A stretch of DNA of 64,000 nt from Patescibacteria group bacterium. GTDB lineage: Bacteria > Patescibacteriota > Patescibacteriia > UBA10025 > JAHIVO01. The position numbers and the translations under genes are program-made. The notes beneath the pieces were generated by a model, which saw only the letters and a list, made by a program, of their open reading frames with translations, had not been told where the DNA came from and made no database searches. How positions within the stretch are numbered: the stretch's first letter is position 1; each line of letters starts with the position of its first letter. The stretch lies in the NCBI GenBank assembly GCA_028718605.1, contig JAQULM010000002.1, forward strand, positions 321,776-385,775, read 5' to 3'. Below are positions 16,628 to 40,528 of this stretch, piece after piece.

Positions 16628-16631
16628 CAGT

Positions 16632-18746: not shown

Positions 18747-18752
18747 GTTTGA

Positions 18753-18781
18753 TTGACAAAAACATCAATACGGAGTATAAT
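18753..18781 (+). promoter_or_regulatory. Consensus sigma70 promoter P1: TTGACA, 17 nt, TATAAT.
   Basis: Exact -35 TTGACA (18753-18758), a 17-nt spacer, and exact -10 TATAAT (18776-18781). Confidence 0.6.
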
Positions 18782-18794
18782 AATAACGTTACCA

Positions 18795-18823
18795 TTGACA
18801 CGCATCGTAACCTTTTGTATAAT
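18795..18823 (+). promoter_or_regulatory. Consensus sigma70 promoter P2: TTGACA, 17 nt, TATAAT. It sits in tandem with P1, with a strong SD (aagggggtga) 8 nt before the 18935 ATG.
   Basis: Exact -35 (18795-18800), a 17-nt spacer, and exact -10 (18818-18823). Confidence 0.6.
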
Positions 18824-18934
18824 ACCAGGATTTCGTGAATTGCTAGGTTCTTGCGCTCCGATGTGTTTATTATTTCGCTAGTCCCTTCTCGCATTTCAAT
18901 AAGAGAAAAGGGGTAGAAAGGGGGTGAGTACAGA

Positions 18935-19291
18935 ATGAAAAAAATTACAGTCGGCTTACTCACTGCAGCAGCGGTTTTGCTGCCAGTCGTCGCTTCAGCA
19001 CAGGTGAACATCAACAAGGTAAACGGTTCGACCTTCAACCTTGGCACCGCGGACCTCGAGTCAGCGGTCGTGAACATTGTGCAGTGGGTGTTAGGTTTCT
19101 TGGGATTGGTCGCAGTTATCATGATCCTGATCGGCGGTTTCCAGTGGATGACAGCAGGTGGAAACGAAGAAAAAGTTGCATCAGCAAAGAAAATTATTTC
19201 TGCAGCAGTTATCGGTTTAATCGTTATATTGCTCGCATGGGCAATTGTCATCTTTGTCGTTTCGCAGACACAGGACTGGACTGGCGTCTAG
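18935..19291 (+). CDS. T4SS-pilin-like (TrbC/VirB2-like) small membrane protein, probably the highly expressed paralog.
   Basis: Signal peptide MKKITVGLLTAAAVLLPVVASA plus the core LGFLGLVAVIMILIGGFQWMTAGGNEEKVASAKKIISAAVIGLIVILLAW. It has tandem consensus promoters and a strong terminator. Confidence 0.65.
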   Translation: MKKITVGLLTAAAVLLPVVASAQVNINKVNGSTFNLGTADLESAVVNIVQWVLGFLGLVAVIMILIGGFQWMTAGGNEEKVASAKKIISAAVIGLIVILLAWAIVIFVVSQTQDWTGV

Positions 19292-19311
19292 TGAATGTTT
19301 GATTCTAACTG

Positions 19312-19350
19312 CCCCCCACACCATTTTTTATGGTGTGGGGGGTTTGTTTT
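19312..19350 (+). terminator. Strong rho-independent terminator. The 12-bp stem is ccccccacacca / tggtgtgggggg, with loop tttttta and trailing TTTGTTTT.
   Basis: Perfect 12-bp inverted repeat plus a T-tract directly after the pilin-like gene. Confidence 0.8.
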
Positions 19351-19378: not shown

Positions 19379-21382
19379 ATGGAAATTGCGAAAAAAATCA
19401 CCCTCATGACGCGGCGATACAGCACCCTGCTGCTCTGGATATGTATCGCGATATTCATAAGCGCGCTCTTTATCGTTGTCGCGTGCAAGTACGCTGCGTT
19501 TGGCTACGACGCGATCGATCTCGGGATATACAGCCAGGTTTTTTTCAATTCCAGCCATGGTGCGCTGTTCGAATTCTCAGTACACCCGCATTCCTACCTC
19601 GGTGACCACGTCGAGCTTTTTATTTTATTGCTCCTGCCGTTCTACGCACTCCTCAAATCCCCGCTCACGCTCCTCGCACTGCAGATAATTGCCGTCGCCA
19701 TTGCTGCCGTGCCGCTCTACTCCATAGCCCGCAGGCTGCTCCCCGAGCATTGGTCGCTCGCGATCGTGCTCGCGTACTTATGCAACCCGTTTGTATTGAA
19801 CATGGCGTTTTTTGAATTTCACTTGCTCCCGTTCGCCATCCCCTTGCTCATGGCAGCGTTTTACTTCTACCGCGAGAAGCGGCTGGCATGGTTTCTTGTT
19901 TTTTCAGTCCTCGCGCTCTCGGTACGGGAAGACGTCCCGCTCGTTATCGGCATGTTCGGCGTGCTCGCTGCCATTGACCGCCGGCGACTCCGGTGGATAC
20001 TGCCGCCAATAATTATTAGCGGCGTGTGGTTCATAGCTGCATTTAAGTTAACCGGCTACTTCAGCGGTTATGACACCTATAAATTTCTCGCTTTTTATTC
20101 TTGGCTCGGATCAACCCCAGGGGAAATCGTACACAATGCGCTATTCAAACCATGGCTTGTTCTCCGGCAGATTATGAGCGCGAACAATCTGCTGCTGGTA
20201 ATCGGTTTGCTCCTCCCACTCGGAGCATTGCCGCTGCTGAAAACACGATACCTTATTCCGGCCGCGCTCATCACGGCCCAGCTTTTCCTCGCGACCGTGA
20301 GCAGCACGATTGTACTTCAAACACACTATCCATCGCTCATTATTCCGTTCCTCTTTATCGCGTGTGTCTTTTCGCTCGCAACAGTGCTCTCAGCGACGCC
20401 ACGCGCAACACGCCTCGCGCAGTTTGCGCGCCGCAACCGGCTGATCGTGCTCGCAGTTTTCGGTATGGCGGTCGTGTATAGTTTTCTGACATTTAGCCCT
20501 GCCGTAAGCAGCGCGAAATTCGTAGCAACAGGACAGCACCGCAATGAAAGCACTACCGTGAAGCGAAACGCCATTGCGCCGATTCAGGAGGGTGACGCGG
20601 TGGTCGCGAGCTACGAATTTTTGCCAGCATTAGCCCAAAGAAAACATTTATACCCTCTGCATTATTTATTTCTTGGAGTTCAGCAGTATTCTGATAAGCC
20701 GTATATCGTGACTGAACCGATCGACACGGCCGTGGTCAATTTCCAAGACTTCGTAACGTACTACATCCAAACAGGCAACATTAGCTCATACCGCGACCAC
20801 TACCGGTCCGGCGCGGGAAGAATTCTCTCGCTGATTAACGAAAATCGGCTCGGCCTGGCCTCTCTGACCGATTCAATCGCGCGGTACGACCGAAACGCGC
20901 AGCCAGTCGCCAAACTCGTTGACCTGCCGAATGCAGTCAGCGCAAGTGCGACTGCCGTTGAAACCACGGGCAACCAGCTTCTTCGCATTACCGCATGGGA
21001 TCGAATCGCTGCGCTCCCGGACCATGAAGCCCTTGCGGTCCTTCCCCTTGCGCTGTACTGGGAAAAAAGCGGCAATCTCGCCGAGGACTATGCCATGGAA
21101 GTCGTGTTCCGTACCGCAAACGGTAAAGCAGCCAGCACAGAATACTACCCCATTGGGTACGGCATATTCCCCCCCTCTGTATGGATCGTCGATACTACCG
21201 TCCAAACCAACCACTGGTTCCTCATACCACGGGAGTGCAAAAAAAGCTCGTGCAATGCCGAGCTTACGGTCGTCTCTCTCCGCGGCTATTACGGCCTGGA
21301 TGGAATCCGCTCAACCAAACTCGAAATCACCCAGCGGCAGTCAATCGGGCCTACGGTAACTATTCCCGCACCCGATAGATAG
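19379..21382 (+). CDS. Polytopic membrane protein, GT-C / DUF2079-like putative glycosyltransferase, with an approx 300-aa C-terminal extracytoplasmic domain. The start is moved to an internal ATG, because the upstream part of the ORF is the terminator.
   Basis: N-terminal motif GYDAIDLGIYSQVFFNSSHG is typical of DUF2079. There are more than 10 TM helices. Confidence 0.5.
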   Translation: MEIAKKITLMTRRYSTLLLWICIAIFISALFIVVACKYAAFGYDAIDLGIYSQVFFNSSHGALFEFSVHPHSYLGDHVELFILLLLPFYALLKSPLTLLALQIIAVAIAAVPLYSIARRLLPEHWSLAIVLAYLCNPFVLNMAFFEFHLLPFAIPLLMAAFYFYREKRLAWFLVFSVLALSVREDVPLVIGMFGVLAAIDRRRLRWILPPIIISGVWFIAAFKLTGYFSGYDTYKFLAFYSWLGSTPGEIVHNALFKPWLVLRQIMSANNLLLVIGLLLPLGALPLLKTRYLIPAALITAQLFLATVSSTIVLQTHYPSLIIPFLFIACVFSLATVLSATPRATRLAQFARRNRLIVLAVFGMAVVYSFLTFSPAVSSAKFVATGQHRNESTTVKRNAIAPIQEGDAVVASYEFLPALAQRKHLYPLHYLFLGVQQYSDKPYIVTEPIDTAVVNFQDFVTYYIQTGNISSYRDHYRSGAGRILSLINENRLGLASLTDSIARYDRNAQPVAKLVDLPNAVSASATAVETTGNQLLRITAWDRIAALPDHEALAVLPLALYWEKSGNLAEDYAMEVVFRTANGKAASTEYYPIGYGIFPPSVWIVDTTVQTNHWFLIPRECKKSSCNAELTVVSLRGYYGLDGIRSTKLEITQRQSIGPTVTIPAPDR

Positions 21383-22994
21383 AAACATCCCTATTACGGA
21401 ATATCGCCTCGAGGTACGCTTTCGTGTCCGGATCATATGATCCGGATTCTTTTTCTTTCTGCCCGTAAAAAACGTACGCAATATTCTGCTCATTGAGGAA
21501 TTGTTTCTTGCCAGTGCTATCGGTATCGTCCTGCCAGAACCACTCACTGGCTGTAAATTTTTCCTGCAGATTAATAGTTTGCGGGCCGTGGCCGACCCAG
21601 ACCACCCTGCCGCTGTACGCCGGAATGAAGTTGCCCATGTAGTAGCTCGAAAAAATGACCTCACGTTCACCAACATGGTCACGGAGCCAGTGCATCGCCT
21701 CAACCTCCTGCTCGGTTAAATAGTACGGCAGTGCTTTTTTTGTTTGGTAGAGGTGGATGTCCTGGCCAACAATCTGCGCATTCGTAAGCGGCAGAAAAAC
21801 GAAAAGCACAATCAGTACAATGACCGGCGCCATGCTGTCCGAACCACGCTTCCTGCTGATCACGCTCACAACGCTCGCAACGCCAATAAATGCAAGGATT
21901 GACAGCGGAATATGGAATCCCTCAATCATGCGCCGCTGGAATGCGACGGGAAAATATACAAGCGCCATTGTCGCCGCGATCCAGGACAGAACGAATATAT
22001 GCCGCGATGTGGGTTTGCCCCGCAGTTTCCATGCGCCGACCGCAGCCAACGGCAGCAGGAGACCGAAGCCAATCAGGTACATCCATATGCTCGGCGAGTT
22101 GAGGATGTTTTGGGCAGACCAATTGCGGATTACCCAGTCAGCGCGGCTGATAAGGTAGAGGTAGAGAACTGGTGGAACCGTAAAGAGCGCGAGCACAACC
22201 CCATGCTTCAGGTATTGCCAAAGTACCGTACGGCTCCGGATGCATTGAACACAGATAAAAATGGCCAGCGTCAAGGCAATCGTCGGCGCATTAAACGGGT
22301 GAAACCAGGTCAGAAACAAATTCGCAATACCGGCAGCAACGCTGTATGATACGCGGTTCGTATCAAACGCCAAGAGCATCAGGAGAAAAACAAGCACAAT
22401 GAGTGTCAGGGACGCGATAATATGCGGTGTATGGTAGAGCGTCAGGAACGTGATGCTCTCTGGCACCCAAATATCCGTCGGGTGCTCCTCGATATTATTG
22501 GGGTCAAAAAGGAACGGATTGAAAAACACGCCGAGGCCCGAGGAAAAAACAATCAGGATGAGGACCCACACCCGCCAGCGCTGGTGCCGAATCACGTACG
22601 CGATAAACAAATAGACCACAAAAATAAATACAGCAATGAGTATCGAACGGGCGATATGGAGCGCCAGCAAGTTTGGCATGTCGAATGCTTTCGCAAATAA
22701 CCCAACAGAGAGCCATAAGGGATTAATGAAAATCCGCGATTGCGCTTCACCTGTGTACAAATTGAGAAATACCGCGTGCCCCTGTTTTACCTGCTCAATC
22801 ATGGACAGAAAAACATTCGTGTCCCCCGGCGTCAGGTGATGCAAACCGGTGTATACCATGCCGGTAGGCCTCGTGAAGTAACCATACAGATACGGCGCTG
22901 CAGTTATGACAATGGTTGCGCAGGCAATAACGGCGATGAAAATCCATTCACGCTTTGAAATTGATTGAATTAATTGTTTTAGTCCGTGTCCCAT
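21360..22994 (-). CDS. GT-C fold membrane glycosyltransferase (PMT/ArnT/GT39-like). Its 3' end overlaps the convergent upstream gene by 23 nt.
   Basis: More than 11 TM helices, then a C-terminal soluble domain, as in polyprenyl-phosphate-sugar dependent transferases. Confidence 0.5.
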   Translation of the reverse strand: MGHGLKQLIQSISKREWIFIAVIACATIVITAAPYLYGYFTRPTGMVYTGLHHLTPGDTNVFLSMIEQVKQGHAVFLNLYTGEAQSRIFINPLWLSVGLFAKAFDMPNLLALHIARSILIAVFIFVVYLFIAYVIRHQRWRVWVLILIVFSSGLGVFFNPFLFDPNNIEEHPTDIWVPESITFLTLYHTPHIIASLTLIVLVFLLMLLAFDTNRVSYSVAAGIANLFLTWFHPFNAPTIALTLAIFICVQCIRSRTVLWQYLKHGVVLALFTVPPVLYLYLISRADWVIRNWSAQNILNSPSIWMYLIGFGLLLPLAAVGAWKLRGKPTSRHIFVLSWIAATMALVYFPVAFQRRMIEGFHIPLSILAFIGVASVVSVISRKRGSDSMAPVIVLIVLFVFLPLTNAQIVGQDIHLYQTKKALPYYLTEQEVEAMHWLRDHVGEREVIFSSYYMGNFIPAYSGRVVWVGHGPQTINLQEKFTASEWFWQDDTDSTGKKQFLNEQNIAYVFYGQKEKESGSYDPDTKAYLEAIFRNRDVSIYRVRE

Positions 22995-23002
22995 ATGCGT
23001 TA

Positions 23003-23986
23003 TTATGGCATGTTCACGGTTTTCTCATGGACCTCTCCGGAATCGGAATCTGGCTCCCGAGAGATCGCCTGCCGCGATAAATAGTAATTAAACACAATGC
23101 CGAGTGCGAAAATCCATATCATTGAAATGCCCCGGTCGAGTACTGCAGCGGTTACGCTGTCAGAGACGTTTACCGCAAACCATGCAGCAAATGCGCCGAC
23201 GAGCGCTTCGCGTATAACAAGCCCGCCAGGGGTTATTGAAGTGAATGTTGCCAGAAGCGTAATAGGCCCCACTAAGATATAGAAAAATATTGAAATATCA
23301 TATCCAAGCGCATTGCTCGCGATAGAAAGCCGAAGCGCCGCGAGAAAGATAATAACAACATTTAAAAACGCTGACTGCCAGATCACGCTTCGGTGCTGCA
23401 TGAGAATACGAACTCCCTGGAAAAAACGCTCTGCGAAACTCCAGCGGATTCCCAGACGGCGTGCGGCCACCAAAGCGGCGAAGACCAAAAATGAGAGGAC
23501 GACAACCCCACCATATATGGCAACGGGGAGCCAAGAAATGGTAAAACCATTCCACAAGGCTGCCACCAGTCCAGCAAGACCGACAATGCCGACCACGAAA
23601 AAAGTAATGAGGTAACTTGCGGTCAACATTGAAAGATACTCTGTATATGAAAATTGATATCGGCGTTTAAGGTAGAGCCCTTTTGCAACCAGGCCTCCCT
23701 GAAAAGGTAAGTAATTCCAAAACGAATTCACGACGGAAACGCCGAACCATTCGGAGGTTTTCAGGCGAATATTGAACGGTCTCAAGAGAACCGTATTCTG
23801 GATACCATTAGCGAAAAACACCGCTATTGAAATGGCGGACATGGCCGCCGCGTCAAACCATCCAATATTTAAAATGCTCCCAAAGTCAAATTGTTCCCGC
23901 TGGACAAAAAACCATACAAAAATGCAAGAAATGATCAGAATGACATATGAGATCACTTTCTTGTACGAACCCGATGCAACAGCCAT
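23003..23986 (-). CDS. Lysylphosphatidylglycerol-synthase-TM-region / flippase-like (UPF0104) membrane protein.
   Basis: 8-TM protein with the LPG_synthase_TM-like pattern (GIQNTVLLRPFNIRLKTSEWFGVSVVNSFWNYLPFQGG). Confidence 0.5.
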   Translation of the reverse strand: MAVASGSYKKVISYVILIISCIFVWFFVQREQFDFGSILNIGWFDAAAMSAISIAVFFANGIQNTVLLRPFNIRLKTSEWFGVSVVNSFWNYLPFQGGLVAKGLYLKRRYQFSYTEYLSMLTASYLITFFVVGIVGLAGLVAALWNGFTISWLPVAIYGGVVVLSFLVFAALVAARRLGIRWSFAERFFQGVRILMQHRSVIWQSAFLNVVIIFLAALRLSIASNALGYDISIFFYILVGPITLLATFTSITPGGLVIREALVGAFAAWFAVNVSDSVTAAVLDRGISMIWIFALGIVFNYYLSRQAISREPDSDSGEVHEKTVNMP

Positions 23987-24021
23987 ATTCCTTGAAACAT
24001 TACCCCTCTCGCAAATTAGAA

Positions 24022-24741
24022 TTATTTCTGCTTATGAACTCTGCAAACGAGCACAAGGAAACTCGCAAAGTACACCAGAGGGGTCCTCGCGAGAAAGCGC
24101 TCAAGCCAGCAGAGCACAGAGCGAAGAATGGGTATGCGGTAGAGATGCCCCGTCGGCGAGATTATCCTGATGCCAGTGACTTTCTCGACAGTACACATGG
24201 GCGGTAAGTACTTCTTCGCCCCCCAATAGCTGTCAAAACGCGTATATACATCTTCCGCGCTTAAAAAACTAATGAGCCGCCGGATACTCCATGCATTATA
24301 AAACTCCAGGATCAAATGCCCGCCATTCTGAGTAATGCGGGTTGCTTCCTGGATGAGCGGACCGATGCGTTCAACGTGGCCGAGGACCTTGAATGAATAC
24401 ACAACATCAAATGCGTTATCGGAGAATGGCAACAGTTGATTCGCATCCGCCTCCCGTACGTCCAATCCTTTCCGTCGAGCTTCGTTGAGCATGGTGCGCG
24501 AATTATCAATGCCAATGAGCGATTGTGTGGAGTCGCGAAGGCGTTCCATAACCATCCCCGTGCCACATCCCACTTCAAGGGCCTTCTTCCCGTGTATATA
24601 TGGCTCAACGATGCTGACCGCCGAATCATACAATAGCTTATAGTAATGCGGATACTTTATTATTCGATCCGTATCGTAACTGCCCCCTGTTGTATTGTAA
24701 TATCCTTGTGTATTTGACATATGCTTATCATCACTATACAC
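24022..24741 (-). CDS. Class I SAM-dependent methyltransferase. GTG start at 24741 as in the ORF track, alternatively the ATG at 24720.
   Basis: Motif I LEVGCGTGMV, acidic IGIDNS, and motif II/III. Confidence 0.7.
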   Translation of the reverse strand: MYSDDKHMSNTQGYYNTTGGSYDTDRIIKYPHYYKLLYDSAVSIVEPYIHGKKALEVGCGTGMVMERLRDSTQSLIGIDNSRTMLNEARRKGLDVREADANQLLPFSDNAFDVVYSFKVLGHVERIGPLIQEATRITQNGGHLILEFYNAWSIRRLISFLSAEDVYTRFDSYWGAKKYLPPMCTVEKVTGIRIISPTGHLYRIPILRSVLCWLERFLARTPLVYFASFLVLVCRVHKQK

Positions 24742-26923
24742 GTACCTGCTCCTTCAGTACACGGGTACTGCCCCGAAGCGTTCGGGGATTGATGACTATG
24801 CCACCGAATGAAGAGAGCAACTGTCGGACAAGTTGTTCCTGGCGCTGTTTTAATAAAGGGATTGCCCGGTTATCGACGTACGGTAATAGAGTTGAGCATA
24901 AAATATCATGGTACTCAATTGTTCGACATACGAGAGCAACGCATTGGCCAAGTGTACGTGTATCTATCTTTATAAAATCCGCGCCGATTTCCGATGATAA
25001 AACCACGATGTTGTTAACGTTCCCGGTAGGGATTCGTTGGGCTGCCGGCATGAGCCGGTCAATGGGAATGCGCGTACTGAGATACAGGCGCTGGCGCATG
25101 ACCGCCCCTGCAAACCAGCGTATAAAACTTTTGCATATGAGCACCATTCGAATCCCGGCGGAAAGCGAAAGTGAAGGCACGGCACGTGTTGTACCGCTGA
25201 AAATATGCACAAATCGCGGGGATAAAGACAACACAGCGCCTGCCGGCTCGACCAAAAGAGCATCGTCCGCTACGAACTGCCAGCCGTGCGCAACCAGATT
25301 GAGTGCGGTGCTCGTCTTGCCGCCCCGTGAGCTGGCAATAAAAACGGATACTTTTCTATCGTGGGCTACTGCTGCTGCATGGAGCAGCAGCGAACCTCGC
25401 TGAAGGGCAGTATAATAGATAAATGGCATGAGCACCATTGAATAAGCCCCAAGAGCTACGATATGGCGTACAAGCCGATATGCGGGGTGCACCGAACATC
25501 GAATCTCAAAACAGTTCTCTCGGGTCGAGCGTACCGCAATCGTTGCGCGGAACGCTTTACTTTTAACTTGAAATGTCTTGCCGACAAGAGGCAGTGAATA
25601 ACCTATATGAAAATCAATGTCAGGTATCGTGGGCGAATCAGCACATTCAAGATTTGAAAACTCTTTGCGAAAAAAATCAAGAATGAAAGTATTTTGAGCG
25701 GTTACCGCAACGATTCCTGCGCTTTTCAAATCGAAGCGGGTGGTTTTCGTTATCGCCAGGGAAGGCTCCCGATATACGCTATATGTTCGTTGTGCAATAT
25801 TCTGCCACATGCATTCCTGCTGAACCACGGACCGTCCGTGCCGGCCAAACTGCCCGCGGAGCGAGGGATCAGCGATCAGCTTTACAATGGAATCAGCAAT
25901 CGCTTCCGGCGTGCCAGGAGGCACGACAAAGCCCGCCGTACCGTCCTGAATAATGTCCGAAACGCCCCCAACATTCGTCGCAACGACCGGCCTGCCAGCA
26001 GCAAGCGCTTCAATGATAACCAATGGAAAACCTTCTCGATTTGATGTCAGCATCAAGAGTGCATGGCGGGCAAACTGCCGAGGAACATCCCGCTTGTCAA
26101 CCGCACCAGTAAACGCCACTGATTTTTGTATTCCGAGTTTCCGGCATAGCGCCTCGCATGGGGCGCGTTCCGGGCCGTCACCGATCATGGTCAGCCGGGC
26201 ATCCGGGGCGTGAATAAGCACCGCCTGGAATGCTTGAATTGCCAAGCGTGGATTTTTTTCCTCGGTAAAGCGGCCAATCCATACTACGCTATGATTGGCT
26301 GCATCCGCAAAGGGTATGCGAAGTAGCTCCTCAGCATTTGAAACGCCATTCGGGATTACGGCAACCCGCCGCGGGTTAACGCCAAGGCCGAGAATTATAT
26401 CACGCTGTTGTTTCGCCACCGTGATAACACCGTCAGCCCTCCGGAGTACGTAGCGGGAAATGCTCCGAAATAAACGGTTACGCGTGCTCAAATACGCATC
26501 CGAGCCGTGTACCGTTACGACGAGCCGCGCACGGGTGAACCGCCGAACTACTACGCCAATAATGCCCGCGCCAACCCAGTGCGCGTGGATAATATCAGCC
26601 CCCCGGGACGCCCGGACGCTGTTTACCAAAAAACTGACAAGAAAAAATGGCAGGCCAAGCAATGAAATAACGTTATGGCGTATATTGCTGACAACGCCAC
26701 CCCCATACCCCACGCGCTCATATGAAGAGGGCCACATATACCGAAAACGGCGAATGGCAATCCGCTCGCGAGCCTCCCGTTTTTTTAATCCCTGCCCATG
26801 GGGCGCAACGACTACTACCTCAACGCCACGCTGTGCTAATGAACGGGCAAGCTCAAAAACAAAAATACCCGCATAGTCACCTCGATGACGGGGAAACGAC
26901 GTTGTGAGCATGCATACCCGCAT
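24734..26923 (-). CDS. Fusion protein. N-terminal GT4 (GT-B) glycosyltransferase, approx 370 aa, plus a C-terminal HprK-C-like P-loop serine-kinase domain, approx 260 aa.
   Basis: GT4 part: EGFPLVIIEALAAGRPVVATNVGG. HprK-like part: GSLLLHAAAVAHDRKVSVFIASSRGGKTSTALNLVAHGWQFVADD, against the HprK pattern hGvlv.v.g.GvLitG.SGvGKSE.ALeLi.rGHrLvADD. The two parts share a single uninterrupted frame. Confidence 0.6.
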   Translation of the reverse strand: MRVCMLTTSFPRHRGDYAGIFVFELARSLAQRGVEVVVVAPHGQGLKKREARERIAIRRFRYMWPSSYERVGYGGGVVSNIRHNVISLLGLPFFLVSFLVNSVRASRGADIIHAHWVGAGIIGVVVRRFTRARLVVTVHGSDAYLSTRNRLFRSISRYVLRRADGVITVAKQQRDIILGLGVNPRRVAVIPNGVSNAEELLRIPFADAANHSVVWIGRFTEEKNPRLAIQAFQAVLIHAPDARLTMIGDGPERAPCEALCRKLGIQKSVAFTGAVDKRDVPRQFARHALLMLTSNREGFPLVIIEALAAGRPVVATNVGGVSDIIQDGTAGFVVPPGTPEAIADSIVKLIADPSLRGQFGRHGRSVVQQECMWQNIAQRTYSVYREPSLAITKTTRFDLKSAGIVAVTAQNTFILDFFRKEFSNLECADSPTIPDIDFHIGYSLPLVGKTFQVKSKAFRATIAVRSTRENCFEIRCSVHPAYRLVRHIVALGAYSMVLMPFIYYTALQRGSLLLHAAAVAHDRKVSVFIASSRGGKTSTALNLVAHGWQFVADDALLVEPAGAVLSLSPRFVHIFSGTTRAVPSLSLSAGIRMVLICKSFIRWFAGAVMRQRLYLSTRIPIDRLMPAAQRIPTGNVNNIVVLSSEIGADFIKIDTRTLGQCVALVCRTIEYHDILCSTLLPYVDNRAIPLLKQRQEQLVRQLLSSFGGIVINPRTLRGSTRVLKEQVRV

Positions 26924-26925
26924 GG

Positions 26926-27876
26926 TTACTGCTGTAAATCTTTATTCGTATCCATGTCAAACCACATCGCAAAAAACAGCGATTGCGTGCCAAAGAGAAA
27001 GAATATTGCTGCGAATAACGCGCTTGTGCCGGATACCGGCCCGCTGAAAATCCGGTACCCCAGCAGGTACAGGCCAAAAGTTAAACCAATGAGAAGCGAT
27101 GCGCCCCCAAAAAAATAGAAAAACACGAGTGGATGGAAATCGCGAATGATATATTTTTCTTTCAGGCGCCAGAAAAAATTCTTCATAAGGAGCCACGAAA
27201 TCTTCGGAATGACCGATCCAAGCCGGATCCCGGACCGCTCCCCCGCATAGATTGGGCGTATCGGCACTTCGCATACGCGCGCCCGTACGACATTGAGCTT
27301 AACAAGGATGTCATTAGGAAATCCGTACCGCGGATAGAGCCCGTCGAGGGGAAGCCGCTGAAGCATTGCCAGTGAAATCGCAGTATACCCAGTCTGGAAA
27401 TCAGAAAGTTTCCAATATCCCGAGGCGATTTTGGTTAGCAATGACAATATTGCGTTCCCGATAAAACGGTATTTCGGCATAACTTGCCACGAATTCCCAT
27501 ACGCAAACCTGTTCCCTTTCACATAATCCGCCGTTCCCCGCACGACAGGTAAAACAATCTGTTCAAGCTCTCCCGGATCCATCTGCCCGTCGCCCGCCAT
27601 CACCGCACAAACATCAATCTTGTCCTTACAAGCCCGCCGGTAACCGCTGGTGATCGCCGCTCCCACTCCCCGATTCCGGTCATGCTGTATGAGCGCGACG
27701 GTCGTCGACGGTGTGCCACGAAATGTCCGGACGATTGTGCACGTCGAATCCGTGCTCGCATCATCAATAACGTACACTGCGTCAACAAATGCCGGCATCG
27801 TTTCCAGGACGCGGCGAATGCGCTCCGCTTCATTGCGGGCAGGAACAACAACACAAATTTTCTTTCCGGACAGCAT
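26926..27876 (-). CDS. GT2 polyprenyl-phosphate sugar synthase (Dpm1/GtrB-like) with C-terminal TM helices.
   Basis: KKICVVVPARNEAERI ... VYVIDDASTDST, then DGQMD, then C-terminal hydrophobic helices. Confidence 0.75.
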   Translation of the reverse strand: MLSGKKICVVVPARNEAERIRRVLETMPAFVDAVYVIDDASTDSTCTIVRTFRGTPSTTVALIQHDRNRGVGAAITSGYRRACKDKIDVCAVMAGDGQMDPGELEQIVLPVVRGTADYVKGNRFAYGNSWQVMPKYRFIGNAILSLLTKIASGYWKLSDFQTGYTAISLAMLQRLPLDGLYPRYGFPNDILVKLNVVRARVCEVPIRPIYAGERSGIRLGSVIPKISWLLMKNFFWRLKEKYIIRDFHPLVFFYFFGGASLLIGLTFGLYLLGYRIFSGPVSGTSALFAAIFFLFGTQSLFFAMWFDMDTNKDLQQ

Positions 27877-27879
27877 AGA

Positions 27880-29322
27880 TTATTTCTGAAGATTGAACCG
27901 TCGTAAAACAATGCGGCTTACAGTTTCCCATTGTACCATAAGGGCGAATATAACTAAAGAAAGGCAAAACAGCACACTCGGCAAAAACACCTGGAGCATG
28001 CCGTAGTACAGAAAGCCATACACCGTAATAATCAGGATGATACCGTGGTACCATCGGTCACGGGTAATGAGTACAAGCGGCGCGCACCAGAGGATATACC
28101 AAATATTAAATTTTCCGCCAAGCAGAAGAACCAATAAAAGCAACATCCAGAAATACCGCTTAATATCAGACGAGCCATCTCCCCGCTTCCCCATGAAAAG
28201 CAATAAAGAATATGGGACTAGAAAAGCAACAATGTAACCCGCCCGGACTGCGGTCAAATTGTAGGGAATCAATGGAATAAGTTTATGAAAGCCCTCAAGG
28301 GCGACCTGGATGAACGCTTGGGGTAACGTGAGATAATTATCCTTTACAAACGCACGGCCAAGATTTCCGATGCTCGAAGAAAAGCTTCCATAGGGGAGAT
28401 ATGCAATCGCGATGAGGGCCGCCCCGACGAGAGCGCCTATCGCACAATCACGCCATGCCTTTTTTCGATCCTGGGTGAATATCAATAAAACAACAACAGG
28501 CAAGAGTACGATCGCGCTGTATTTTATCAGGAAGGCACACGTGAGCGCCACGATAGACCAACGATATTTTTTAGTCACGATGAAATACACGGATGCCAAA
28601 ATAAACAGCACCATATACATATCATTATGTGCAGAATGAACCGCTTCAATAAGGATATACGGATTCCAGAGGAAGAGCGCAGTGCCTATAAAGCGGAACT
28701 TCGGGGCACTCTGTTGCAAAATTTTATACATCAGGTAACCGCACGCGGCGAAAACAGCCGCTGCAGCAAGCCGAAAAACCACCAAGTTCGCCACAATATC
28801 AGAACCGGCAATTTTATTGAAAAGCAGCCCAATGGAAATAAACAGCGGCCCGTAAACGGACTCCTTGTCCGGCCATGCCACAAAATCGCTGTATCCGAGC
28901 GACGCGGGCGTTATGGTATACGGATTGGCATGGTGGATGTTTGCTATTGCAGACCGGGTAATGTAACCGAATAAATCGGAGGAAAAAAACGGCGGGCTTA
29001 AAAAAAGTATCACCACAAACACAACAGGAAAAAGTATGAGGATCCGCTGGTAGCGGGCACTTGCCTCGTGCTGCTTCCGCACCGTGAAAAAAAATACCCC
29101 GTACAGAATGCAGAACGCGAGGAAAAATAAACTGAACACAACCCTGTTCGCGAAAAAAATTCCTGCATGCCGCATAAACGTACCGATGTGCGGAGGCATG
29201 TAGAAAAAGGTAAGGAGGGTGTACGCGAAAAACATAAAGCTAAAAACAACCCCCAGAAGTACGAGCCGGCGCGTTGCAGTGCCCGCCGCGGCGTGTGTCA
29301 ACATGACGCTTTGTTCTTTCAT
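27880..29322 (-). CDS. GT-C fold membrane glycosyltransferase (DUF2029 / GT87 / PIG-M-like mannosyltransferase family).
   Basis: Polytopic. Shared motifs with its neighbour: SDLFGYITRSAIAN-HHANPY and VYGPL. Confidence 0.5.
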   Translation of the reverse strand: MKEQSVMLTHAAAGTATRRLVLLGVVFSFMFFAYTLLTFFYMPPHIGTFMRHAGIFFANRVVFSLFFLAFCILYGVFFFTVRKQHEASARYQRILILFPVVFVVILFLSPPFFSSDLFGYITRSAIANIHHANPYTITPASLGYSDFVAWPDKESVYGPLFISIGLLFNKIAGSDIVANLVVFRLAAAAVFAACGYLMYKILQQSAPKFRFIGTALFLWNPYILIEAVHSAHNDMYMVLFILASVYFIVTKKYRWSIVALTCAFLIKYSAIVLLPVVVLLIFTQDRKKAWRDCAIGALVGAALIAIAYLPYGSFSSSIGNLGRAFVKDNYLTLPQAFIQVALEGFHKLIPLIPYNLTAVRAGYIVAFLVPYSLLLFMGKRGDGSSDIKRYFWMLLLLVLLLGGKFNIWYILWCAPLVLITRDRWYHGIILIITVYGFLYYGMLQVFLPSVLFCLSLVIFALMVQWETVSRIVLRRFNLQK

Positions 29323-30782
29323 CGCGATTTGCCGTCAGAAAATTGTATGCCAAACCGAAGCCGTGGGGCCGCCAAAACAGCTGCATAGTACATCCCCACA
29401 AGCACCCAAAAGAGAGTATTCGCCAGAAGATTGCCGTCAAGGTAAAAAGCAAACCCGCTCAATGTCAGTATGAGAATAATCGGAAAATGGCGGGGATTTC
29501 CGGCAAGGAGCAGGAGCGGAAATAACCAAATGGTATACCATATATTAAACATATTCGCAACGAATGAGAGCGCTAGTGCAATAATCCAAAAATAACGCCG
29601 GATAAAAACACCGCGTTCGGCGATACGCGGCCAAAATAATACCACGGCGTATGCTGCTCCGAATACCACGAGATATAACATCAAGAGGGTATCCTTGCTT
29701 GCCGGTGGGGAATTAAATACATCACCAATGGTCTGCACGACCCCATTAATAACGCTCTTGAAAAACGTCAGCTTATAATTCGCGACATACGCACGGCCGA
29801 GGTTGCCGACATTCGCGGAAAAATTGTGAAATGGCAAATACAATACCGCAATGACAGCAAACGCTGCCAGAACCACCAAGCCTAATTTTACTGCCTTTTG
29901 GCGAGAGGGCATTCGGTCTTTAAGCAGCATGAGAAGGAGTACCGGGAACAGAAAAATAGTGATGAACTTCACGGCAAAGCCGGCGGCTAACATTGCTCCC
30001 GCAAGGACGTACTGGCGCCGGAGTATGAACAACGCCGACAGCAGAATAAACGCGAGCATGATGATATCGTTGTGCACATTACTCACCACTTCAAGCAGCA
30101 CGAAGGGGTTCCAGAGAAACAGCGCTGTCGCAGCATACGCATGCCGAGACGCTACCCGCAGCATAATACGAAATACGAGATACCCGCACAGGGCAAACAG
30201 GGCAACATTGAACAATCGGTAAACCGTTAACTGGGCGATGAAAGCGCTCCCGCCAATCTTGTACAGGAACATCGAGATGATTGTATACAGGGGGCCATAC
30301 ACCATCGGCGTACGCTCGCATGGAACGATGGTGCCGTAGCCGAGCTCTTCCGGCGTCGTATTGTACGGATTCACATGGTGTTCGACCGCTATTTCAGCTC
30401 GAAAAATATACCCATAAATATCCGTTGTCATGAACGGAAGCGACAGGAAAAGGATGGCCGTGAAACATATTGAAAAAAATAGAATGGTGCGGAAACGGCG
30501 CTGTGGCTCGTCCGAAGATGTCCGCAGATACAAATACACGATGCAATACACTGCGGTCATGCCAAGAAATAGCAGGACGAGCACTCCCTTCCCTGCATTG
30601 AACACGCCGGCGCAACGAAAAATATTCCCACATGCCGCCGACGTAACGATGTTGGTGGTTATTGCGTAGAGCAGAAATAAAAGGCACAGCAGGATGCCGA
30701 GCCCGACAACTGACCGGCGTGGCCACTGATAGTGGCGTAGAATTGCCGGCATAAGTGCTGTTTTGTTGAATCCACCGAGCAT
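29319..30782 (-). CDS. GT-C fold membrane glycosyltransferase, tandem paralog of 27880..29322 with a 4-nt overlap.
   Basis: TDIYGYIFRAEIAVEHHVNPY ... VYGPLYTIISMF parallels its neighbour. Confidence 0.5.
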   Translation of the reverse strand: MLGGFNKTALMPAILRHYQWPRRSVVGLGILLCLLFLLYAITTNIVTSAACGNIFRCAGVFNAGKGVLVLLFLGMTAVYCIVYLYLRTSSDEPQRRFRTILFFSICFTAILFLSLPFMTTDIYGYIFRAEIAVEHHVNPYNTTPEELGYGTIVPCERTPMVYGPLYTIISMFLYKIGGSAFIAQLTVYRLFNVALFALCGYLVFRIMLRVASRHAYAATALFLWNPFVLLEVVSNVHNDIIMLAFILLSALFILRRQYVLAGAMLAAGFAVKFITIFLFPVLLLMLLKDRMPSRQKAVKLGLVVLAAFAVIAVLYLPFHNFSANVGNLGRAYVANYKLTFFKSVINGVVQTIGDVFNSPPASKDTLLMLYLVVFGAAYAVVLFWPRIAERGVFIRRYFWIIALALSFVANMFNIWYTIWLFPLLLLAGNPRHFPIILILTLSGFAFYLDGNLLANTLFWVLVGMYYAAVLAAPRLRFGIQFSDGKSR

Positions 30783-30870
30783 AGACTACTCTTTTCACTA
30801 TTCGTATCTCGTAACAGCCAGTATACCAACGCCCCTTCACTGCCGCAATAAAGCATTGGGCAACGACGAA

Positions 30871-32079
30871 CTACGCCGGCGTGGGTGCCCCATGCTCCGC
30901 TTGGCGGATGCGGACAAAGCGCACCATAATCAACACCATGGCAATAGCCACGAGGAGCAGCGACGCCGTTGTAAACGCCGGAGTCCAGTTCCCCCACAGC
31001 TGCCAAACCACCGGATATGCAAAATAATTTATTACGTCGTACGCGATGACGAGAGCCACTTCGTACCATCGTGGGCGGCACACAATGATGAGCGGAACAA
31101 ACCAAAGAATCCACTGCGGCGAATAAAACCGCGAACACAGCAAGAAGAGGGTGACCGCGATCACGCACCATGATATGAACTGCGCCGGCGTTTGTATGGA
31201 CTTCTTCATGCGGTGCGGGAAAAAAACAAACGCCAGCGGAACACTGGCCTGGAGCAGGAGAAAAAAGCCAAAACCGATATAATTTACTGCTGAACCGCCC
31301 AATGATTGTAGGGCAGGCGCCAGGAGAATCGAATACAGGCTACCGGTTCCTGCGGCGCGGCTCGCATGAAAAAGATACGGCTGCAACGAATATATCCCAT
31401 CCATGATGAACCCGCCAGCGAGGACCAGCGTGATCGGCACTATAAAGTATACTGCAACGTCGTTCCGAACCCTGCTGTGCACAACAGATGGCTGCTGCCG
31501 TTCATAGTACCAATACAGCGGCAATAGAATCAGCGGATACCACTTCACGAGGACTGCGCACGCGAGGATAAATAATGACAATCGGCGGCGGCGGACGATC
31601 AGAAAATAGAGGCTCGTTTGGACGAGGAATGCGATACATACGTCAAAACGGCTGAATGTAAAATACAGCATGGACGGGAGTACCAGCAGCATGATAAGCC
31701 ACGGAGACCCTCCGAGGTGCTTGATCAGTTTATATGAAGACACGATCAAGCCGACCGCGCACAGGAGGTTCATGGTAATCAAAATCGTGCGGTAGCCGAG
31801 GTAGTCGGCCGTCGCGAGGAATGGCAGGGTTATGTACGCCAAGCCAAGCTGCGGGTATTCTTGGAATGAATCCTTGCCGTACGGCGTTACGTCCTGGGGC
31901 AGCCAGCTGCCGCGCGTATAAAAAACCGTCAGTTCGTTGTCGTCACGCACTCCGCGAAAATCTCCCATTGGCGTCGATACCTTCTCGGGCACGAAATGGA
32001 CGGCAAATGACGCGCCGGCGCAAACGACAACGGCGATAAGCACCACTATTTTTCCGTGTGATCGCAACCACATACGCAT
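30871..32079 (-). CDS. Polytopic membrane protein, GT-C-like. Only the C-terminal two-thirds of the 505-aa ORF is called. The start is set at the internal Met after the Ser/Thr/Arg-rich non-membrane prefix.
   Basis: The first TM begins right after MRMWLRSHGKIVVLIAVVV. The upstream ORF portion overlaps the preceding gene and has an atypical composition. Confidence 0.45.
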   Translation of the reverse strand: MRMWLRSHGKIVVLIAVVVCAGASFAVHFVPEKVSTPMGDFRGVRDDNELTVFYTRGSWLPQDVTPYGKDSFQEYPQLGLAYITLPFLATADYLGYRTILITMNLLCAVGLIVSSYKLIKHLGGSPWLIMLLVLPSMLYFTFSRFDVCIAFLVQTSLYFLIVRRRRLSLFILACAVLVKWYPLILLPLYWYYERQQPSVVHSRVRNDVAVYFIVPITLVLAGGFIMDGIYSLQPYLFHASRAAGTGSLYSILLAPALQSLGGSAVNYIGFGFFLLLQASVPLAFVFFPHRMKKSIQTPAQFISWCVIAVTLFLLCSRFYSPQWILWFVPLIIVCRPRWYEVALVIAYDVINYFAYPVVWQLWGNWTPAFTTASLLLVAIAMVLIMVRFVRIRQAEHGAPTPA

Positions 32080-32080
32080 A

Positions 32081-33796
32081 TCAATCCAACACCCGATAAA
32101 TGGTAGCTTCAGCGTCCCGATATGCCTCCGCGAACCCACCGTCATTCTCGATTGCCTGCTCCATGCCCCGGTGGTTTGACTCCACGAATACGTACGATGC
32201 GCCGAATTTTCCTCGGATATCATCGTGCAGGTTCTCCGTTTGGGTGCCGATCGTGATGTCAACCATGCGGCGGTACAAATCGTGGCTGTACTCGTACGTG
32301 AACGTCGGGTCCAGCCCTGCAATATAGTAATTCTGGGAATTAAAATAAAACAGTATAGGAAACTCATCCCAGCTTGAGTGGAATACAATTTCGCCTTTTT
32401 GGGTATTTTCCTTGAGCCATGTGGCCGCTTTCTGGAAACGCGTCAGCGGAATTCCGCCCTGGTAGTCCCGGTACGTGCCGCGGATATCCTTCGCGGCGAG
32501 TGCGGGAACCATGACCGCAAAATAAACAATGAGAATTGTCGCTATCACGCGGTAGCGGGAATACCAGCTCACTATATTCCGGCCGATCGCACGCCATGCA
32601 TACTGCCCGACGAGCTGGTGGATGGCAAACGCTTCGAACAGGATAGCGAACGGCACATAGTACTCCACGTACCGCCGTGATTTGAGGGTGAATACAAGCA
32701 GAAGTAAAAAAATCCCGAAAAGCGTCAAAACTTTTTTCGAAAGCCGGTGGCGGTTGACGACCATCAAAACGAACGCAACTACGAGGAGCACCGTGACTAA
32801 CGCAGTACCCGCCGTCAGGTCAACAAATTTATACGGGTACCATTCGTTCCCCACGGAAATCACTTTCTGGTAGTTAATAATGCCGATTTTGATGAGCTGG
32901 TTCCAATAGAACGACAAGTTGTGAGGGAAATACGGGTTCACGATAATGCCAGCGATGACGCCAGCGAGAGACGCGAAAAAAAGCTTCACGTCGCGGCTAT
33001 GGCCGATGATTGAAAAAAAAGTGCGATGCTGCAAGTTCCGCACCCAATCATACGCAATGCCCACGAACGCATAAATACCGGCAAAGATTACGATGAGGAT
33101 AAATCCACCATACGCCCATACGTAAAAAAAGGAGAGCAAAAACAGCGCACGGTAGCGGTACTGAAAAATTACATGCAGCCCAATAAGCAAGAATAGGATA
33201 GAAAACGCGGGTGCCTTCACGAGATTCACGCGGAACATGAATGGCATTGTCACGAGTAAAATCAACGAATAAACGAACGCAAACCGCACATGGTACCGGC
33301 GCAGCATGAAATAAAAAACCATTACGAGGAGGGATGTCAACACGACATTCGCGAACTTCGCGCCCCACAGCGGCCCAAGCGCCATTTCAAATGGGACAAG
33401 AAACACGTGGTACAAAAAATGCTGGTCAATGTAGTGGTCTCGGATGACGGAAACCTGGAGCCAGGGAAATGTCTTGATGATGCCATCCGACCGGATAATC
33501 TGCGCCATCTTCGCGTGGTAAAAAGAGTCTGGGTCTGGAAACGACGGGACTGACTGGAATATCGCGCACAAGGTCGTTGCGACGACTAACAAAACACAGG
33601 CGGCGACCACCCACCCGTATTTCTTGAAAAATACCAAAGCTTGTTGCCTTGAAATCATGGGTGCATTATACCATTTTTCGCGTATAACTCGAAGGAATAG
33701 TGCGTTATCCACACCGCCCAGCAAGACGCTGGTCAGCATAACATTTCGTGGGTTGCTGACGAGCACTCCTCGGGCGTCTACTTCTACCGGATACAA
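32081..33796 (-). CDS. GT-C fold membrane glycosyltransferase (ArnT/PMT/STT3-like). The start may be internal, at M47 (33658).
   Basis: More than 12 TM helices. An early loop motif PDPDSFYHAKMAQ is followed by a C-terminal soluble domain. Confidence 0.45.
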   Translation of the reverse strand: MYPVEVDARGVLVSNPRNVMLTSVLLGGVDNALFLRVIREKWYNAPMISRQQALVFFKKYGWVVAACVLLVVATTLCAIFQSVPSFPDPDSFYHAKMAQIIRSDGIIKTFPWLQVSVIRDHYIDQHFLYHVFLVPFEMALGPLWGAKFANVVLTSLLVMVFYFMLRRYHVRFAFVYSLILLVTMPFMFRVNLVKAPAFSILFLLIGLHVIFQYRYRALFLLSFFYVWAYGGFILIVIFAGIYAFVGIAYDWVRNLQHRTFFSIIGHSRDVKLFFASLAGVIAGIIVNPYFPHNLSFYWNQLIKIGIINYQKVISVGNEWYPYKFVDLTAGTALVTVLLVVAFVLMVVNRHRLSKKVLTLFGIFLLLLVFTLKSRRYVEYYVPFAILFEAFAIHQLVGQYAWRAIGRNIVSWYSRYRVIATILIVYFAVMVPALAAKDIRGTYRDYQGGIPLTRFQKAATWLKENTQKGEIVFHSSWDEFPILFYFNSQNYYIAGLDPTFTYEYSHDLYRRMVDITIGTQTENLHDDIRGKFGASYVFVESNHRGMEQAIENDGGFAEAYRDAEATIYRVLD

Positions 33797-33995: not shown

Positions 33996-35069
33996 TTATT
34001 TTGCGAGCTGTTCCTTGAAAAAATCCACGTACGGGACCGGCGTCGGGTTGAGCCGGTTGGAGAGCGCCAGATAGTAGTTCATATAGCTGCCGAAGAGGAG
34101 AATTTCCAGGACTTGCTCTATGGGTGTACGGCCAGCCGCAATATAACTGGCAAAAGAAATCTTGTTTTTCAGGAGCACTTTCTTGGTAATGGCAAAACGC
34201 CGCTGTATCTTCGGCAAATACAGGCGGGACTCGATAAATAAAAATTTCAAAACGCTGCGATTCGCGCGAGGCAATTTCAGGCCTTCCATCAGGTGGTGGT
34301 TTAATTCCGGAATCAGAAAGTAGGAGGAAAATACTTTGCTGTTTTCGTTGATCTGGTTGGCGAAGACGTGGGCATTGCCCGAAAGATGATCGGCACCGAC
34401 GATAATCGGGATGCGGCCGGCGAATGCGCGCGCTGTTTGTTTCGCTCCATTCTTGCGCAGCGGCACTTTTGCGCCGAATCGACGGTGCAGGGCGACAATT
34501 TTCTGGACTGCCTCCTTGAACTCGCCCTCAGCCAGTTTCAGCAAACCGCTCCGCCGGAGCAGGACAATCTGCCCAATAACCGAATAGCCCAATCCCATGC
34601 GCGGCTGGTTGCAGGGATTAAACTGGGGAACGAAAAAATATCCCGGCACGCGGTACTTCTGTGCCAATCGGGCGAGTTTTGAATTCGCCATGCAAATAAC
34701 CATCAGCTTCGCTTTCCGCCGGCGCGCTTCAGCAAATGTCGACAGGGGCTCCTCCGTCGTGCCTGAATAGCTAGAAATGATGTAGAGCGTTGTGCGATCT
34801 ACAAAACCGGGCAACGAGTAATGATTTATTATCTTGATGGGCACTTTCAACGCCGTTCCGAACAAAGACTCGATAATATGCCCACCGAGGGCAGAGCCTC
34901 CCATGCCGTTGATAAGTATATTTTTTACCTGGCGGTAGGTACGTGGGATTTTTACCATGTTCGCCTCTTCCCATGCCTGCCTGCACTGCAAGCCGAGTGA
35001 CTCGATTGATTGGAGCAGGTTTGATTTGTCGTACCGCCGGTACTGACTTGTGGAGTCGAGCAAATTCAT
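33996..35069 (-). CDS. Bifunctional phosphoglucose/phosphomannose isomerase (archaeal-type PGI/PMI, SIS domain).
   Basis: NGMGGSALGG is a SIS phosphosugar-binding motif, then SYSGTTEE. Length about 350 aa. Confidence 0.7.
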   Translation of the reverse strand: MNLLDSTSQYRRYDKSNLLQSIESLGLQCRQAWEEANMVKIPRTYRQVKNILINGMGGSALGGHIIESLFGTALKVPIKIINHYSLPGFVDRTTLYIISSYSGTTEEPLSTFAEARRRKAKLMVICMANSKLARLAQKYRVPGYFFVPQFNPCNQPRMGLGYSVIGQIVLLRRSGLLKLAEGEFKEAVQKIVALHRRFGAKVPLRKNGAKQTARAFAGRIPIIVGADHLSGNAHVFANQINENSKVFSSYFLIPELNHHLMEGLKLPRANRSVLKFLFIESRLYLPKIQRRFAITKKVLLKNKISFASYIAAGRTPIEQVLEILLFGSYMNYYLALSNRLNPTPVPYVDFFKEQLAK

Positions 35070-39131: not shown

Positions 39132-39145
39132 TTAATACTACGATC

Positions 39146-40525: not shown

Positions 40526-40528
40526 CGT

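Follow-up and report, generated by a model that had tools for sequence, protein, structure and literature searches.

Transfer of a sugar from a lipid-phosphate donor by a glycosyltransferase of the GT-C type is a textbook mechanism. Three-component systems of this kind that act outside the cytoplasm, namely GtrA/GtrB/Gtr*, CsbB-GtcA-YfhO and ArnC-ArnT, have been described (PMC11127046). Here we analyse a cluster of ten open reading frames (ORFs), g1 to g10, located at positions 19379-33658 of a 64,000-nucleotide stretch (the window) of contig JAQULM010000002.1, which belongs to a tiny-genome metagenome-assembled genome (MAG) of Patescibacteria, the Candidate Phyla Radiation (CPR). We consider the cluster to be an operon for extracytoplasmic assembly of a glycan from polyprenyl-phosphate-linked hexose, with an envelope glycopolymer favoured over a protein glycan as the product, and we put the probability of this reading at roughly 0.45. 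The analysis identified a conserved GT-C trio, consisting of g10, g2 and the DUF2079 protein g1, which occurs in the genomes of hundreds of Patescibacteria species and lies here near the probable replication origin. The CPR envelope mediates attachment to hosts and, to our knowledge, is almost uncharacterised.

The ten genes and their protein families

Nine genes are encoded on the minus strand, from g10 (33658-32081) to g2 (22994-21360), with an operon-like spacing of -8 to +88 bp, and g1 (19379-21382) is located on the plus strand, convergent with g2, with a 23-bp overlap of the 3' ends. The locus tags run from PHY34_00130 to 00175 on a 386-kb contig, relatives of the source MAG are labelled Kerfeldbacteria, and the public annotation of g2, g7, g9 and g10 is 'hypothetical'. 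An earlier note on this DNA had proposed a ten-gene cluster with six GT-C membrane proteins ending at 33796. The ten genes and the six GT-C assignments were confirmed by Pfam/NCBIfam searches, in which family matches were graded by the curated cutoffs, and by profile and fold comparison, whereas the end coordinate had to be corrected: the deposited g10 protein (PHY34_00130, 525 aa) begins at 33658, and 33796 is the TTG start of the longest ORF. The start of g9 is most likely near 32079, not 32388, in a deposited protein of 400 aa. The note's assignments of a GT2 synthase, an LPG_synthase_TM flippase-like protein, a SAM methyltransferase and a DUF2079 protein were matched by Pfam/NCBIfam, and its tandem paralog pair (g7 and g8, 36% identical) and GT4::kinase-like fusion (g5, with an HprK-like P-loop domain matched below the curated cutoffs) were borne out as well. 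The six adjacent polytopic proteins of 400-670 aa, each with 10-14 hydrophobic segments, were all assigned to GT-C, and that six neighbours of this size resolve to one fold class means that the pattern cannot be chance.

Two of the six, g2 (544 aa) and g10 (525 aa), belong to unannotated families. Neither matched Pfam STT3, and a Pfam scan of 37 members of the g10 family returned no consistent family; therefore, fold comparison was needed for g10. The g10 profile gave only noise against PDB sequences. AlphaFold2 models generated from homolog alignments had pLDDT values of 96.2 (g2) and 93.4 (g10). In the Foldseek ranking of g10, positions 1-13 were all occupied by oligosaccharyltransferase catalytic subunits (E = 2e-9 to 4e-7); ArnT came next, at rank 14, and PglB took ranks 16-19. 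Among solved structures, protein-modifying oligosaccharyltransferases are closest to g2 as well as to g10, with ArnT, AftA and ALG9/12 scoring nearly as well; the predicted fold of g2 can be described as oligosaccharyltransferase/AftA-like. In the models, the membrane domain is followed by a C-terminal 'central core' alpha/beta unit of the type that, after a 13-helix membrane domain, characterises STT3/AglB/PglB (AglB-type in g2), and the C-terminal region is common to the g2 and g10 families (hhalign 96%, E = 1.8e-9). Taken together, the data make g2 and g10 GT-C enzymes with oligosaccharyltransferases as their nearest structural relatives, g10 being the most oligosaccharyltransferase-like of the six, and two large families of 'hypothetical proteins' are thereby assigned to the GT-C fold beside these enzymes. 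For the g2 family, which has no Pfam model, 11,475 clusters at 50% identity were retrieved in an exhaustive profile search, and the search for the g10 family gave >800 matches; one g10 homolog is named 'ArnT family glycosyltransferase' by NCBI.

We took the defining motifs of oligosaccharyltransferases from PMC3703281 and PMC8342417. Compared with AglB-S2 and yeast Stt3, the g2-family profile aligned 'VIFSSYYMGNFIPA' of g2 onto 'AVLSWWDYGNWILY', a weak but precise match on the WWDYG segment (E = 0.023 for AglB-S2 and 0.85 for yeast Stt3). The WWDYG position reads SSYYMG in g2; it differs between members of the family, and FWDGN or EWIDGN stands there in a few distant ones. In g10 it reads SSWDEF, within a family consensus H-S-[DS]-W-D-E-F-P in which W430, D431 and P434 are invariant. 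Also invariant in the g10 family are P43-D44-S45, which together with the preceding D42 makes a D-x-D directly after the first transmembrane segment (TM1), and I267-x-V-G-x-E272-W in a long loop; g2 has a single conserved D58 after TM1. No clear EL2 DXD was found in the g10 sequence, and no DK/MI or DGGK motif was detected in the g2 and g10 sequences, where the DK/MI judgement needs residue-level structural superposition. Because both proteins fail the WWDYG test, g2 having lost the motif and g10 retaining only the invariant W-D, they were not filed as bona fide oligosaccharyltransferases. It is conceivable, but in our view unlikely, that g10 and, more distantly, g2 form a very large, hitherto unrecognised bacterial branch of the STT3/AglB/PglB superfamily with an altered WWDYG, the sequon-reading motif being replaced by an invariant x-W-D-E-F in g10 and degenerate in g2, which glycosylates surface proteins together with a DPMS-like synthase and ALG/GT87-like GT-Cs, as a bacterial equivalent of the lumenal part of eukaryotic N-glycan assembly. 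It would be equally doubtful, then, that the glycan is extended outside and moved to, for example, the co-located pilin-like proteins via a new acceptor motif. The g2 and g10 families may supply evolutionary intermediates that link oligosaccharyltransferases to other GT-C enzymes.

The other four GT-Cs, g1, g7, g8 and g9, are linked to one another by profile comparison. The 667-aa g1 matched Pfam DUF2079 (4e-53) and carries the NCBI name 'DUF2079 domain-containing protein'; it ends in a further domain of ~270 aa. Over the core membrane-helix region, its DUF2079 profile aligned with that of g7/g8 (82% probability, E = 1e-5), and its D47, immediately after TM1, is invariant. The tandem paralogs g7 (27880-29322, minus strand, 480 aa) and g8 (29319-30782, minus strand, 487 aa) both matched TIGR03459 (MptA), g7 at 1.7e-16 and 60.2 bits and g8 at 3.7e-11 and 42.6 bits over nearly the whole model, against an equivalog cutoff of 439 bits. 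Within the pair, a GT87 match was obtained for g8 only (2.4e-8, above cutoff), which NCBI names 'glycosyltransferase 87 family protein', and the g7 ortholog in locus L001 carries PF26314 MptA_B_family. As far as can be judged from sequence, a relationship with MptA/MptB holds at the family level and fails at the equivalog level. Both paralogs were found in loci L012 and L015, and their D116, located after the third hydrophobic segment, is invariant or nearly so. The GT87/PIG-M-like g9 (30871-32079, minus strand, ~400 aa) had no direct Pfam match; however, 9 of 15 orthologs matched GT87 and four the PIG-M family, and the g9 profile matched the solved GPI mannosyltransferase I (1.2e-4) and the g7/g8 profile (hhalign 98.5%, E = 1.5e-15). 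D46 and E49 in its first outer loop are invariant. Single-sequence PDB searches with g1 and g8 returned noise only.

A PMT/GT39 identity was rejected because the PMT_2 matches were below threshold (21.9 bits for g7 and 25.9 bits, cutoff 26.1), and no match to PMT, MIR or 4TMC was obtained. The proposed analogy to Ppm1 + Pmt protein O-mannosylation is thus not supported. The nearest characterised relatives are the MptA/GT87 lipoglycan mannosyltransferases or, in the case of g2 and g10, oligosaccharyltransferases and ArnT. The characterised MptA, GT87 and PIG-M enzymes elongate lipid-anchored glycans.

On the donor side, g6 (26926-27876, minus strand, 316 aa) combines a GT-A domain with C-terminal membrane helices, visible as two hydrophobic segments within residues 247-304. 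It matched Glycos_transf_2 (1e-19), AglJ (4e-24), PpgS (6e-12) and ArnC (2e-7) in Pfam/NCBIfam, and Pyrococcus DPMS (5mlz, 1.3e-7) and ArnC (7e-5) in PDB. We predict that g6 is a GT2 of the GtrB/DPMS/ArnC polyprenyl-phosphate glycosyltransferase type; every NCBIfam match was under its equivalog cutoff, so that no sugar specificity follows from these matches. The polytopic g3 (23003-23986, minus strand, 327 aa) matched PF03706 LPG_synthase_TM (3.2e-21) and the flippase-like domain TIGR00374 (2e-11, above cutoff), and in L001 the g3 position is taken by a divergent protein that shares the ITPxGxxIRE motif. No GtrA, SMR or MATE gene was found within the cluster, g3 being of the LPG_synthase_TM/TIGR00374 type instead; it is the candidate flippase of the lipid-linked sugar.

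The remaining two proteins appear to be accessory or cytoplasmic. The product of g4 (24022-24741, minus strand, 239 aa) is a class I S-adenosylmethionine-dependent methyltransferase (Methyltransf_11, 6e-21). In g5 (24734-26923, minus strand), a cytoplasmic GT4 (residues 1-390; Glycos_transf_1 2e-38, Glyco_transf_4 4e-26) is fused to a P-loop domain of ~340 aa that matched ScmC (1e-8), HprK_rel_B (4.5e-8) and HprK_rel_A (7.6e-7), all below the curated cutoffs, and contains a Walker motif SSRGGKTS followed by VADD. The P-loop domain (window 24734-25760) resembles two other proteins, P0363, which is labelled 'dolichol-phosphate mannosyltransferase' by JGI, and P0367, a fusion of a GtrA-like domain (PF04138) to a P-loop domain; this recurrence hints at a tie between g5-type P-loop domains and lipid-phosphate-sugar systems. 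A word-indexed homolog search with the C-terminal fragment of g5 returned five weak matches and missed the parent protein P0369, and negatives from this search were not trusted for the domain.

Relatives of g2 provided further links to the donor side. Among the top g2-profile matches were GT2::g2-family fusions of ~790 aa (P0315, P0318 and P0352), and in P0315 and P0318 the GT2 part can be aligned with g6 over ~210 residues (E = 1e-10). These fusions support a predicted coupling of the g2 family to a polyprenyl-phosphate-sugar synthase and, together with gene linkage to the DPMS-like GT2, the prediction that the six GT-Cs use a polyprenyl-phosphate or -diphosphate sugar donor. Fusions of the g2 family to a YfhO-like protein (~1,350-1,390 aa; P0271 and P0300) were also found, as was a distant g2 homolog adjoining a YfhO-like gene. 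YfhO-type enzymes glycosylate teichoic acids, and by analogy the fusions and the neighbour point to polymer acceptors. Around another distant g2 homolog (L084, 1-17205), at least 10 consecutive GT-C-type genes (PMT, PMT_2, GT87, PIG-V-like and unassigned) accompany one GT2. In L085 (6220-11243), a GT2, a methyltransferase, a g2 homolog and a Kdo/WaaP-like kinase follow in this order, the methyltransferase and kinase-like genes echoing the accessories g4 and g5 of the window.

Gene order in related genomes

In a pattern scan with each species represented by one genome, 299 genomes encoded a g10 relative; wherever a lineage was named, it was Patescibacteria or one of its groups, and the remaining records were titled 'bacterium' or 'uncultured Gammaproteobacteria', the latter assumed to be mislabelled. 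Downstream genes were counted in the 61 loci with at least 9 kb of sequence downstream of g10, and upstream genes in 64 loci. The conserved order across Patescibacteria species is RuvC-YebC-PGI/PMI-g10-[variable GT-C/GT2]-g2-g1-pilin genes-SBP-GalU. Upstream of g10, RuvC was present in 56/64 loci, YebC in 57/64 and the phosphoglucose/phosphomannose isomerase (PGI/PMI) in 46/64. Downstream, g2 was found in 41 of the 61 loci (duplicated in 10), g1 in 37 and both together in 33, with pilin-like genes beyond g1 in 38-39, SBP in 30 and GalU in 20. The middle of the locus varies: a gene similar to g7, g8 or g9 was present in 30/61 loci, a g6-like GT2 in 22/61, a g4-like methyltransferase in 12/61, a g5-like gene in 5/61 and a g3-like gene, as recognised by phmmer, in 1/61. 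Other ORFs between g10 and g2 were mostly GT-C (GT87 18, PMT_2 12, ALG3 8, ALG6/8 2, YfhO 1), in addition to 10 GT2. The order is also kept in a Kerfeldbacteria relative, which has only one MptA-like gene and lacks both the GT4 and the methyltransferase. Literature searches on DUF2079 and on GT-C in Patescibacteria found no prior description, and the papers matching oligosaccharyltransferase together with Patescibacteria or Candidate Phyla Radiation appeared unrelated from their titles and abstracts.

The cluster had been described as an island, a term that these data do not sustain. Its GC content is 0.47-0.53, compared with a window mean of ~0.52, no integrase, transposase, tRNA or other mobility gene was detected in the window, and Rfam and tRNA scans of the window returned nothing. 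Because the same gene order and housekeeping flanks recur across related genomes, the locus is a vertically inherited conserved core with a variable middle, not an island. There is hardly any chance that it was acquired horizontally as an island, or that its GT-C-fold proteins are non-catalytic, PIG-U-like scaffolds or transporters unrelated to glycosylation. A dip in GC content to 0.474 at 28-30 kb and a PIG-U match of g8 just below threshold (23.8 versus a 24.5-bit cutoff) speak for this view. However, most related species have the same order with the RuvC, YebC and PGI flanks, the acidic outer-loop residues are invariant or nearly so in all six families, and the genes are linked, and elsewhere fused, to GT2, so that synteny and motif conservation already largely refute it.

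Proposed pathway and its product

From the family or fold of each protein, the gene linkage and the fusions, which are directly established, we inferred the identity of the donor, its flipping, the order of action and the acceptor. On the cytoplasmic face, g6 would transfer a hexose to undecaprenyl phosphate; the hexose may be glucose or mannose, because the conserved block includes both GalU and PGI/PMI. A lipid-linked acceptor may be primed or extended by the GT4 domain of g5. After flipping of the lipid-linked sugar, possibly by g3, the six GT-Cs would use it in series on the outer face, where g7, g8, g9 and g1 may assemble a hexose oligomer or polymer or add branches to it, and the oligosaccharyltransferase/ArnT-like g10 and g2 may perform the conserved core transfers. 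The methyltransferase g4 and the P-loop domain of g5 could add accessory decoration by methylation and perhaps phosphorylation. Basic residues precede TM1 in each GT-C, which suggests an N-in topology, and therefore the conserved acidic loop residues (D47 in g1, D58 in g2, D116 in g7 and g8, D46/E49 in g9 and D42/D44 in g10) should face outward. The lipid-carrier mechanism itself, in which g6 would make an undecaprenyl-phosphate-linked hexose that is flipped and used outside by the GT-Cs, is well supported by inference. The earlier suggestion of a synthase, a flippase candidate and outer-face GT-Cs thus fits the families, the linkage in dozens of species and the GT2::g2 fusions.

With the same probability as given above, we favour a lipomannan- or lipoglucan-like lipoglycan or a wall-linked polysaccharide as the product, because lipid-anchored mannans are what the characterised relatives of g7, g8 and g9 produce, and because of the multi-GT-C arrays and the links to YfhO. 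Arrays of at least 10 GT-C genes with a single GT2 fit stepwise polymer building. Several points weigh against a glycopolymer. Acceptor, donor and product are predicted here from genes alone. The top structural relatives of g10 and g2 modify proteins, g10 keeps the invariant W-D, and pilin-like genes are conserved neighbours (38-39/61 loci). No anchor-synthesis gene (PimA-type, LtaS-type or LCP ligase) was found in the window, and the MptA matches are far below the equivalog cutoff (60 versus 439 bits). The g3-type gene was recognised by phmmer in one of the 61 loci, though L001 has a divergent form, and a GT2 lies within 10 kb in only 22/61.

A serious rival is a general protein glycosylation system, in which g10, possibly with g2, moves a lipid-linked glycan or single sugars to secreted proteins, a possibility against which we see the odds as tilted. 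The glycan would then be built inside by the GT4 and outside by the GT87/MptA-like GT-Cs with undecaprenyl-phosphate-linked hexose, and the neighbouring pilin-like and Cys-rich proteins would be likely targets; we rate this version of the pathway as no less tentative. It corresponds to the reading of the earlier note, except that g10 takes the place of a PMT as protein transferase. The D-x-D after TM1 of g10, the invariant Glu in its long outer loop (IxVGxEW) and its invariant W-D are consistent with such an activity, as are the lead of oligosaccharyltransferases in its structural ranking and the conserved pilin neighbours. However, g2 no longer has WWDYG and g10 has only its W-D left, neither protein matches Pfam STT3, and enzymes with non-protein acceptors (ArnT, AftA and ALG9/12) score almost equally. 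The adjacency of T4SS_pilin genes to g1 in 38-39/61 loci may also reflect the shared ancestry of 80 loci, in which g10 is 37-66% identical. The Cys-rich pilin-domain protein contains six N-x-S/T sites versus ~3.9 expected, a weak excess, and the small pilins carry 0-1, so that the sites are uninformative. Neither an initiating phosphoglycosyltransferase nor a Wzx/PglK flippase was found in the window.

The cluster might instead decorate a pre-existing polymer or lipid with single sugars in the style of GtrABC, CsbB-GtcA-YfhO or ArnC-ArnT, which we regard as improbable. It would be just as improbable that each GT-C adds one side-chain sugar to a peptidoglycan-linked polymer, a teichoic-acid-like polymer or a membrane lipid made elsewhere. 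The set of a GT2, a flippase-like protein and GT-Cs matches the three-component layout (PMC11127046), and the YfhO-like::g2 fusions, together with the YfhO-like gene adjoining a g2 homolog, agree with decoration. Both g2 and g10 match ArnT well in structure, one g10 homolog carries the ArnT family name at NCBI, and the GT-C content between g10 and g2 differs by genome, which is reminiscent of serotype-type variation. On the other hand, six GT-Cs per GT2, two of them MptA-like and hence of a polymerase family, look more like assembly, conservation and not variation marks the g10/g2/g1 core, and no backbone-polymer genes lie nearby. The genes of the cluster are testable candidates for the main envelope glycoconjugate or protein glycosylation system of Patescibacteria.

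Neighbouring genes and comparison with known systems

Immediately upstream of g10, a bifunctional phosphoglucose/phosphomannose isomerase is encoded on the minus strand (33996-35069; bact-PGI_C 5e-30; NCBIfam PGI/PMI 9e-73, below the equivalog cutoffs). On the other side of the cluster, GalU (UTP-glucose-1-phosphate uridylyltransferase; 14363-15241, plus strand; TIGR01099 331.7 bits, above the 326.8-bit cutoff) is a possible nucleotide-sugar source. It is adjoined by a PGA_cap (CapA-like) protein (13031-14332, plus strand, 1e-70), the only NCBIfam match of which, below cutoff, is the lasso-peptide Trp epimerase MslH.

Three T4SS_pilin-domain genes precede g1 on the plus strand, at 16557-18314, 18348-18746 and 18935-19291 (PF18895 1.3e-6, 1.9e-6 and 1.7e-13, respectively). 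The first of them, with a likely start at 16629, encodes a Cys-rich protein of ~560 aa with an N-terminal T4SS_pilin domain, eight 'GCC' repeats in its C-terminal region and 59 cysteines in total (10.5%), as if a pilin-type membrane anchor had been given an unusual disulfide-rich extension. The region ahead of the third gene matches the promoter pattern TTGACA-17-TATAAT perfectly at two sites (18753-18781 and 18795-18823), and a terminator hairpin with a 14-bp stem (19311-19343) separates the pilin genes from g1. An ORF at 18706-19251 on the minus strand was rejected as a shadow of the third pilin gene.

Further away, dnaN and dnaA (50809-53547) are located beside a change in the sign of the GC skew near 52 kb, and the window probably contains the chromosomal replication origin, ~20 kb from the cluster. 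The region 36409-44871 contains two GT5 starch-synthase-like genes, two GH57 genes (one with a UVR motif), an APH-like kinase, a PHP protein and a GalT-like gene, and this alpha-glucan/glycogen-type block is syntenic in a Kerfeldbacteria relative. A DedA/VTT-domain protein adjoining a C39 peptidase is encoded at 10583-11740, and a ceramidase-family membrane protein further upstream at 6049-6762. The DedA family has been implicated in undecaprenyl-phosphate recycling (bioRxiv 10.1101/2022.02.03.479048).

The cluster resembles the three-component systems in the co-encoded GT2 with C-terminal helices, the candidate flippase and the GT-Cs, and in the predicted use of an undecaprenyl-phosphate-linked monosaccharide on the outer face. 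It differs in having six GT-Cs instead of one, in a flippase candidate of the LPG_synthase_TM (MprF) type rather than GtrA, SMR or MATE, and in being a conserved chromosomal core, not a phage or serotype module, with an additional GT4, methyltransferase and P-loop domain. Compared with STT3, AglB and PglB, SSYYMG in g2 and SSWDEF in g10 replace WWDYG, and genes for assembly of a lipid-diphosphate-linked oligosaccharide are absent from the vicinity.

The lipomannan/lipoarabinomannan pathway of Corynebacteriales, which comprises Ppm1, the GT4 enzymes PimA/PimB, the GT87 enzymes PimE and MptC, and MptA/MptB, has the same mix of families, i.e. a DPMS-like GT2, a GT4 and GT-Cs of the GT87 and MptA types. 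In contrast to that pathway, the scores here are far under the equivalog cutoffs (60 versus 439 bits), no phosphatidylinositol-related genes are present, the host is a Patescibacterium, and the GT-C families of g1, g2 and g10 have no counterpart there. The assembly of N-glycans in the lumen of the eukaryotic endoplasmic reticulum (DPMS, ALG3/9/12, ALG6/8/10 and STT3) offers an analogy, drawn from genes and without a claim of orthology. In both cases, one synthase would feed serial GT-Cs beside an STT3-like enzyme, and loci related to the one described here carry GT-Cs that match the ALG3 and ALG6/8 models.

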